Assembly: GCF_041929235.1 (NCBI RefSeq)
Contig: NZ_JBHFNP010000225.1
Location: 1-58,364 of the forward strand
Length of the DNA stretch: 58,364 nucleotides
Reading direction: 5' to 3'
Source of the DNA: Microseira sp. BLCC-F43
GTDB taxonomy: Bacteria; Cyanobacteriota; Cyanobacteriia; Cyanobacteriales; Aerosakkonemataceae
Of the stretch, positions 14,398-14,597 are shown piece by piece. The position numbers and the translations under genes are program-made. Position 1 is the first letter of the stretch. Each line of letters starts with the position of its first letter. Under the pieces are notes generated by a model, which was given only the letters and a program-made list of their open reading frames with translations, was not told where the DNA came from and ran no database searches.

Positions 14398-14597
14398 AAT
14401 TTCTCCTTTCCAAATTGATTGCTACAAAAAGAACAAAGCGCACAGTGAAAAGACTCGCTCTCGTGCGCACAGGTACTCATCGGATTCGCCTCAGCGAGTA
14501 GGTGCTATTTCTGTTGCCGAAAACTCACATCTTTTGCTTGATTTTTCACAAATTCGCGACAATCGCCAACAAACCGGGTTTATCCGAAAACTATCGG
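14398..14597 (-). promoter_or_regulatory. Conserved 200-nt leader and intergenic region between HAF genes 3 and 2.
   Basis: Near-identical to the other HAF leaders. It contains gtgaaaagactcgctctcgtgcgcacagg and ends with GGAAAGGAGAAATT-ATG. Confidence 0.45.

Follow-up and report, generated by a model that had tools for sequence, protein, structure and literature searches.

A near-identical upstream region of HAF-repeat/PEP-CTERM paralogues in a Microseira-type cyanobacterium: a probable non-coding flank copied along with its genes

A segment of about 200 nt recurs in closely similar form in front of every HAF-repeat/PEP-CTERM gene of the window, by which we mean the whole stretch of 58,364 nt of Microseira sp. 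BLCC-F43 DNA analysed here. It raises the question of whether conservation of this kind in DNA outside genes marks a regulatory element, such as a structured leader RNA or a promoter, or whether it reflects the history of the genes that it precedes. Alignment located five copies at the positions where the preliminary description had placed them, all on the reverse strand and directly 5' of start codons at 6419, 14397, 15746, 16367 and 17717. Numbered by position, copy 1 (6420..6620) lies upstream of the HAF gene at 5229-6419 and resembles copies 3 and 5 on to position ~7010. Copy 2 (14398..14597), the feature under study, occupies all 200 nt that separate the stop codon of the gene at 14598-15746 from the ATG of the gene at 13123-14397. 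Copy 3 (15747..15950) lies 5' of the HAF gene at 14598-15746, and copy 4 (16368..16568) starts at the stop codon of the HAF gene at 16569-17717 and precedes a gene remnant. Copy 5 (17718..17921) lies 5' of the HAF gene at 16569-17717; its beginning at 17718 was as described, but the end given for it, 17900, fell short, the copy running slightly further. A 31-nt core pattern, GAGTTnTnnGCAACAGAAATAnnnnnnACTC, matched five times in the window, as opposed to zero matches expected from 100 shuffles.

Conservation along the leader was found to be uneven. Over the proximal 135 nt, the four copies preceding intact genes present 93-98% pairwise identity, and the copy in front of the remnant aligns as closely as the other four, in agreement with what had been reported. 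The near-identity described for some 200 nt holds for this proximal segment of ~135 nt (93-98%) and not for the distal ~65 nt, in which identity ranges from 72 to 98% depending on the type of copy. In the same manner, the view of the conserved element as an untranslated leader is correct for its non-coding part, but near-identity enters the coding sequence by ~45 nt, spanning in the window paralogues from about -160 to +45 with respect to the ATG and including the synonymous sites of the first codons. The differences between copies do concentrate in short stretches (e.g. cgaatgggattcg versus ctcatcggattcg), as previously noted, and cluster at -106..-70, with 10 of 37 columns variable in this interval versus 3 of 99 elsewhere in the core. 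In copies 1, 3 and 5, similarity extends for another ~450 nt upstream of the leader.

The 200-nt leader is a composite of a proximal and a distal part. The proximal ~135 nt are the sole part common to the distant relatives MAG co319_167 and UBA11372, in which they abut a far-upstream conserved block directly. The distal part (14533..14597 in copy 2, reverse strand) corresponds to the 3' flank of the paralogue lying upstream and is missing from the MAG co319_167 and UBA11372 leaders. In copy 2 it holds AAACCCGGTT, a degenerate form of the 13-nt palindrome GAAACCSGGTTTC, which is dispersed over the window and for which 14 matches with at most one mismatch were detected in the window versus 0.07 expected; the palindrome sites (e.g. 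12388-12400, 17966-17978, 21396-21408 and 22722-22734) are often paired and intergenic. The proximal part comprises three successive segments, all read on the reverse strand. The most upstream of these is Box A, located at 14496..14526 in copy 2 (GAGTTTTCG-GCAACAGAAATA-GCACCT-ACTC), with equivalents at 6518-6548, 15846-15876, 16467-16497 and 17816-17846. Microseira, MAG co319_167 and UBA11372 share no conserved non-coding block above the ribosome-binding region that is longer than Box A, and Box A is unchanged in nine of ten Microseira copies, with one change in copy 1. It is followed by a mutational hot spot (14467..14503, -106..-70) of clustered multi-nucleotide differences, each of which alters complementarity to another leader segment, and by an almost invariant block (14353..14466, -69..+45) that includes a U-rich tract, the Shine-Dalgarno sequence, the ATG and the first 15 codons. 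In copy 2, the Shine-Dalgarno AAGGAG (14403-14408) is found 5 nt before the ATG (14395-14397), and the proximal leader most likely supplies the ribosome-binding region (AAGGAG, 5 nt, ATG) of the gene.

The comparison of copies supports the leader being non-coding, since a 1-nt indel between window copies and the 14-nt and 19-nt indels carried in the leader by MAG co319_167 and UBA11372 break every ORF. A Pfam search with the ORFs overlapping the leader returned no match, and an antisense ORF of 105 aa and an overlapping sense ORF of 59-66 aa, lacking Pfam matches and broken by indels between copies, were discarded as candidate genes.

The four intact genes downstream of the leaders (5229-6419, 13123-14397, 14598-15746 and 16569-17717, reverse strand) all present HAF repeat units and a PEP-CTERM-type C-terminus, and an NCBIfam scan of two of them identified TIGR02913 (HAF repeat, E down to 1e-97) and TIGR02595 (PEP-CTERM). 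They are preceded by 200 to 930 nt of non-coding DNA. The HAF gene remnant (16317..16367, reverse strand) consists of 16 codons (MKILNACKVGMALTGT) and a stop codon, and is joined to the far-upstream block of copy 3. Copies 1, 3 and 5 are preceded by the relic of a coding sequence 3' end (tctagttccaaaccaacgat versus tctagctgcaattgaccgat), and beyond this relic their ~450 nt of similarity run toward a divergent crtISO-like gene or its shortened copies. This crtISO-like FAD oxidoreductase gene is intact at 18390-19859 and recurs as truncated 5' fragments at 7350-7755 and 12452-12740 (both on the forward strand), both of which keep ~90 nt of their own upstream region; like the gene remnant, the fragments mark rearrangements, and they are vestiges of the segmental duplications by which the HAF genes were spread. 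The HAF repeat cores (5400-6300, 13300-14390, 14770-15670 and 16680-17640) appear to be undergoing homogenisation or reshuffling as well, given that their 132-nt (44-aa) units show 82-90% DNA identity both within and between genes. Elsewhere in the window, an 874-aa protein with Major Vault Protein repeats and an MVP shoulder domain, with Pfam E-values as low as 1e-67, is encoded at 7908-10532 (forward strand), between HAF gene copies, and is a homologue, in a bacterium, of a eukaryotic vault protein. A 300-nt direct repeat with 77% identity (35992-36291 and 39608-39907) lies in two adjacent large ORFs (35949-39371 and 39481-41151, reverse strand) and probably corresponds to paralogous domains of these ORFs.

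A scan with the 31-nt core, covering one genome per species, located it only in M. wollei NIES-4236, MAG co319_167 and UBA11372. M. wollei NIES-4236 carries five copies, each before a gene with the same start, and its counterpart of the crtISO-like neighbour protein is 96% identical to that of the window. A metagenome scan with a looser pattern yielded 19 loci, among which one was a true relative (a duplicate of a known contig) and the remainder chance matches, and the N-terminal 60 aa, used as a protein query, recovered nothing beyond a contig identical to the window. Over the region compared, the sequences of two JGI metagenome contigs match the window exactly. The HAF/PEP-CTERM genes of Argonema and of one JGI metagenome showed no homology to the leader, indicating that it is not a general attribute of HAF genes; for P0007, considered in the same search, the upstream sequence comprised just 29 nt. 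By this distribution, the leader appears confined to one narrow gene subfamily, which also has a common signal peptide, MK(I/T)LN(A/T)CKVGMALTAAAFLG.

These observations are best accommodated, with a probability that we place near 0.55, by a leader that is a non-coding 5' flank co-copied within a recently amplified, recombining HAF-repeat/PEP-CTERM family of a Microseira-type cyanobacterium. Recent tandem and segmental duplication, accompanied by ongoing gene conversion between copies, is shown to lie behind the near-identity. The repeat unit encompasses the whole gene plus its flank (repeat families D11-D17), which is the duplication that concerted evolution presupposes. All four gametes were observed in 38 of 66 pairs of informative columns, indicating that the copies exchange sequence, and variants common to the copies of a single genome (GAGT in the window, for instance, versus GAGC in M. 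wollei) fit concerted evolution. Among the window paralogues, identity at four-fold synonymous sites of the alignable gene ends reaches 84-94% (pooled 325/372) versus 93-98% for the core leader, and the first varying site among the four-fold sites scored is in codon 9. The strong conservation that had been taken to suggest a regulatory element is thus mostly due to recent duplication and gene conversion, as evidenced by the four-fold identity of 0.84-0.94 and the four-gamete result.

The core nonetheless varies less than four-fold sites. Among the four genes, 13 of 136 core columns are variable versus 13 of 53 four-fold sites (Fisher p = 0.01), and the difference widens for the core outside the hot spot (3/99 versus 13/53; p = 8e-5), with the hot spot itself (10/37) being similar to neutral sites. 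Since the core outside the hot spot varies less than four-fold sites, either constraint or local homogenisation must be acting on it. This excess is a statistical one, and its presumed cause would be additional constraint or homogenisation on Box A (-135..-107) and on positions -69 to +45; a hot spot of gene conversion at this place could equally explain it. In the comparison with the M. wollei orthologue, 97 of the proximal 100 nt are identical, compared with 204 of 229 four-fold sites in the adjacent orthologous gene. Between Microseira and the two MAGs, core identity (0.62-0.71) is below that of four-fold sites of the gene ends (0.75-0.86), so that the excess vanishes at this divergence, from which it follows that any constraint is lineage-specific at best. 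Conservation of the leader across genera was likewise set aside as a sign of selection, synonymous sites being still 75-86% identical. The ~100 almost invariant non-coding bases exceed what ribosome binding needs, and this leaves room for a function at the RNA or DNA level.

A promoter scan found none in the leaders. No TAnnnT hexamer was detected within 220 nt of the ATG in copies 1, 3 and 5, where base composition predicts ~4.4 in 195 positions, and the sole instance in copies 2 and 4, TAGTTT, begins 5 nt past the upstream stop codon. A TGGCA-type sigma-54 element is absent from all copies, with a loose GG-N10-GC match only in copy 4; in GGCAACAGAAATAGC the GG-GC spacing is one base too long, and the arrangement is lost in MAG co319_167 and UBA11372. 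The J-box GGGnAnnnT was not found in copies 1 to 5 or in the M. wollei and MAG co319_167 upstream regions, and TTTACA does not occur in the 200-nt leader, being restricted to the far-upstream block of MAG co319_167 and UBA11372. Because no -10-like hexamer lies within it, the leader is probably transcribed, and it probably constitutes a 5'-UTR or an intercistronic spacer plus the ribosome-binding region.

A plausible origin for such transcripts was identified further upstream, in a conserved AT-rich block located at 17965..18290 for copy 5 (reverse strand), with equivalents at ~15995-16300 for copy 3 and ~6690-7010 for copy 1, and common to M. wollei, MAG co319_167 and UBA11372. The block encompasses three direct GTRAA repeats with an 11-nt period (18197..18223, 16226-16252 and 6928-6954, reverse strand), conserved in all four genomes, and a pair of extended -10-like elements, TGGTAAGTT and TGATAAATT, separated by 22 nt (18142..18172, 16171-16201 and 6873-6903, reverse strand), the last repeat beginning 32 nt upstream of the first hexamer. 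These two TGnTAnnnT elements, found ~445 and 424 nt 5' of the ATG for copies 3 and 5 and ~475 and 453 nt for copy 1, contain TAnnnT hexamers that are kept in each of six long upstream regions from the four genomes, which is true of no other TAnnnT hexamer. We infer that the phased repeats and the extended -10 pair define a candidate activator-dependent promoter of the response-regulator type, with the three 11-nt-phased GTGAA repeats before the -10 pair resembling response-regulator sites. Transcription of the arrays headed by copies 1, 3 and 5 may hence start at the extended -10-like pair, ~425-445 nt upstream. Under such a promoter, the leader would form the final portion of a long 5' UTR in the case of copies 1, 3 and 5, which precede the first gene of each array, and the intercistronic spacer of a two-gene transcript for copy 2 and for copy 4 with its remnant. 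Both the far-upstream promoter and the co-transcription of the genes behind copies 3 and 2 and behind copies 5 and 4 are postulated here from consensus matches. Other candidate features of the block were discarded: a 20-codon upstream ORF is interrupted in MAG co319_167, a hairpin formed by GCUGAAAGA and UCUUUCAGC is not kept in the MAGs, and TGATAAATT resembles a Zur half-site but has no palindromic partner.

It is conceivable, though we deem it unlikely, that each gene has instead its own promoter in the leader, with Box A (GAGTTnTnnGCAACAGAAATA) and the next segment operating as an operator or as the -35/-10 elements of a promoter dependent on an alternative sigma factor or an activator; the paralogues would in that case be transcribed separately, with 5' UTRs of ~70-90 nt. 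The standing of Box A as the longest conserved non-coding block above the ribosome-binding region in three lineages, and its preservation in nine of ten Microseira copies, would be in line with such a role. So would the J-box-like GGGTAAAAT, an extended -10 of SigJ/SigF type found in UBA11372 at -81, which lies 15 nt downstream of Box A in a position equivalent to the hot spot. PEP-CTERM genes are, moreover, mostly single-gene operons (PMC1569441), and several of those in Nostoc are hormogonium-induced through a SigJ cascade (PMC12188702). The window copies, however, lack the sigma-54 motif, the J-box and, in copies 1, 3 and 5, any TAnnnT hexamer, and the segment that would harbour the -10 element is the most variable part of the leader. 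The invariant 12-mer of Box A, GCAACAGAAATA, is by our own estimate not clearly beyond the neutral expectation for three close lineages with a synonymous identity of ~0.8. A structured cis-regulatory RNA, as contemplated in the preliminary description, appears quite improbable; it would be riboswitch-like, thermometer-like or an attenuator, and would control translation or premature termination of the downstream gene. Rfam 15 yielded no match at the gathering score in the whole window, and just four chance-level matches, none of them inside the leaders, at E <= 10 in 13000-18400. The 206-nt copy 2 leader folds with an energy similar to that of its shuffles (z = +0.34), and the five copies (z = -0.49, -1.31, +0.11, +0.59 and +0.53) adopt five different MFE structures. 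In an alignment of 12 leaders from three lineages, and thus in a weak test, the RNAalifold covariation terms are penalties on both strands (+2.32 sense, +1.89 antisense), and each strand has a single compensatory pair; for covariation the leaders score 0.062 and shuffles 0.069, and 455 of 500 shuffles reach the observed score at the low power afforded by three lineages. The lack of structural covariation that the preliminary description had named as a refutation was therefore observed, but over three lineages only. Given the weakness of a covariation test on three lineages, structure is unsupported rather than excluded.

Several features of the leader would nevertheless suit an RNA-level role: it is probably transcribed, as no -10-like hexamer is present; ~100 nt of it are nearly invariant between paralogues; GAGUCUUUUCA and the start region UGAAAAUACUC are complementary in Microseira; each of the three lineages has a U-rich tract able to base-pair with its Shine-Dalgarno sequence; copy 3-type leaders have an 11-bp hairpin (-22.6 kcal/mol, z = -2.73); and a GC stem followed by a U-tract is found ~30 nt before the ATG. 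Against this, the anti-Shine-Dalgarno hairpins (-3.7 to -5.6 kcal/mol) do not surpass shuffles in stability, the 14-nt segment required for both the long hairpin and the anti-start pairing is missing in MAG co319_167 and UBA11372, and the hot-spot variants make or break helices copy by copy. In the window copies, the anti-Shine-Dalgarno hairpin, a Box A hairpin and the GC stem with its U-tract could not be distinguished from shuffles; the GC stem and U-tract before the Shine-Dalgarno sequence (z = -0.48), which are missing in MAG co319_167 and UBA11372, were discarded, as was a forward-strand intrinsic terminator at 17801-17822 and 16451-16473, which has a weak T-run and lacks conservation. 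The long hairpin, ACUCGCUCUCG/CGAGAGCGAGU, is strong in copy 3-type leaders and limited to 7 bp in those of copy 2 type, and its 3' arm falls in the 14-nt segment absent from the MAGs. An inverted repeat of 11-12 bp, ACTCGCTCTCG / CGAGAGCGAGT (-22.6 kcal/mol, z = -2.73), is present in copy 3/copy 4-type leaders (15800-15850 and 16420-16475, reverse strand) as well as in the majority of M. wollei copies; only 7 bp of it remain in copies 2, 5 and 1. Its differences between copies look like template-switch mutations in a quasi-palindrome, and the hot-spot changes in general appear to resemble this type of mutation rather than the maintenance of a fold. A lineage-specific translational switch, in which hairpin ACUCGCUCUCG/CGAGAGCGAGU (11-12 bp in copy 3/copy 4-type and 7 bp in copy 2/copy 5-type leaders) would compete with start-codon pairing between GAGUCUUUUCA and UGAAAAUACUC, and template-switch mutations in the hot spot would set the balance of each paralogue, is a long shot; if true, it would let one promoter give rise to differing protein outputs from near-identical genes. 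Also very unlikely is that the conserved leader and the gene 5' and 3' ends serve chiefly as homology arms to shuffle variable HAF-repeat cassettes between paralogues. The layout of the genes is compatible with this role, with leader, signal-peptide region and PEP-CTERM end conserved around a core whose repeats differ in number and order, with pervasive recombination within the leader, and with a gene remnant cut off just past the conserved 5' end. Yet any recent duplication yields such arms, and selection for them would have to be postulated in addition; no recombinase gene, invertible element or silent-cassette architecture was found, and each of the four genes, having a Shine-Dalgarno sequence and a start codon, seems capable of expression.

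We therefore retain the co-copied non-coding flank as the preferred reading, and classify the leader as a putative lineage-restricted upstream regulatory or 5'-UTR region that belongs to a family of PEP-CTERM paralogues and that concerted evolution has kept uniform. The case advises caution, in that near-identical non-coding DNA between tandem paralogues needs to be compared with synonymous sites and with orthologues before an RNA is claimed. It also delineates a narrow clade, consisting of Microseira, UBA11372 and one MAG, in which HAF/PEP-CTERM genes present an unusually long upstream region (~420-670 nt) that travels with the gene into different genomic neighbourhoods and offers a candidate response-regulator-type promoter together with one conserved box near the gene. 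Since the known regulation of cyanobacterial PEP-CTERM genes is limited, to our knowledge, to an indirect SigJ dependence in Nostoc, these upstream elements provide concrete targets for transcription start site mapping and reporter assays.

Among known systems, one of the closest is that described by Haft et al. (2006, PMC1569441), who reported that non-coding stretches of more than 200 nt precede most PEP-CTERM genes, that in Proteobacteria these regions share a PrsR site and a sigma-54 promoter, and that non-proteobacterial PEP-CTERM genes have other, undescribed classes of upstream region. The leader resembles the PrsR/sigma-54 regions in that non-coding DNA precedes the PEP-CTERM genes for more than 200 nt, that it hides no ORFs and that paralogues of one genome share it. 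It differs from them in lacking both the sigma-54 -24/-12 motif, which lies ~71 nt upstream of the start, and motif 1, a 17-nt element ending in TTTACA ~63 nt upstream of motif 2 (PMC1569441). The PrsR/sigma-54 site was found in Proteobacteria only (PMC1569441) and PEP-CTERM genes are mostly single-gene operons, whereas two of the five copies analysed here are intercistronic spacers in tandem arrays. In the SigJ system, defined by the J-box consensus GGGnAnnnT of Nostoc punctiforme hormogonium genes (Gonzalez et al. 2019, PMC6495340), the hormogonium induction of Nostoc PEP-CTERM genes proceeds indirectly via SigJ (PMC12188702). The likeness lies in filamentous cyanobacteria whose surface and PEP-CTERM genes are tied to motility programmes, and in the GGGTAAAAT element of UBA11372; the difference lies in the absence of GGGnAnnnT from all upstream regions of the window copies, M. 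wollei and MAG co319_167. With fourU-type RNA thermometers and anti-Shine-Dalgarno leaders, the leader shares a U-rich tract located 20-40 nt upstream that can pair with AAGGAG in three lineages, but here the hairpins are weak (-3.7 to -5.6 kcal/mol, like shuffles), covariation is lacking among the three lineages and Rfam returns no match. The concerted evolution of tandem surface-protein paralogues offers a further parallel, with a tandem and segmental array, mosaic variants that fail the four-gamete test, homogeneity across the boundary between non-coding and coding DNA, and variants shared within a genome. The leader departs from this model in that its core, once the hot spot is set aside, varies less than the synonymous sites of the same genes, suggesting that homogenisation is locally stronger in this region or aided by selection.
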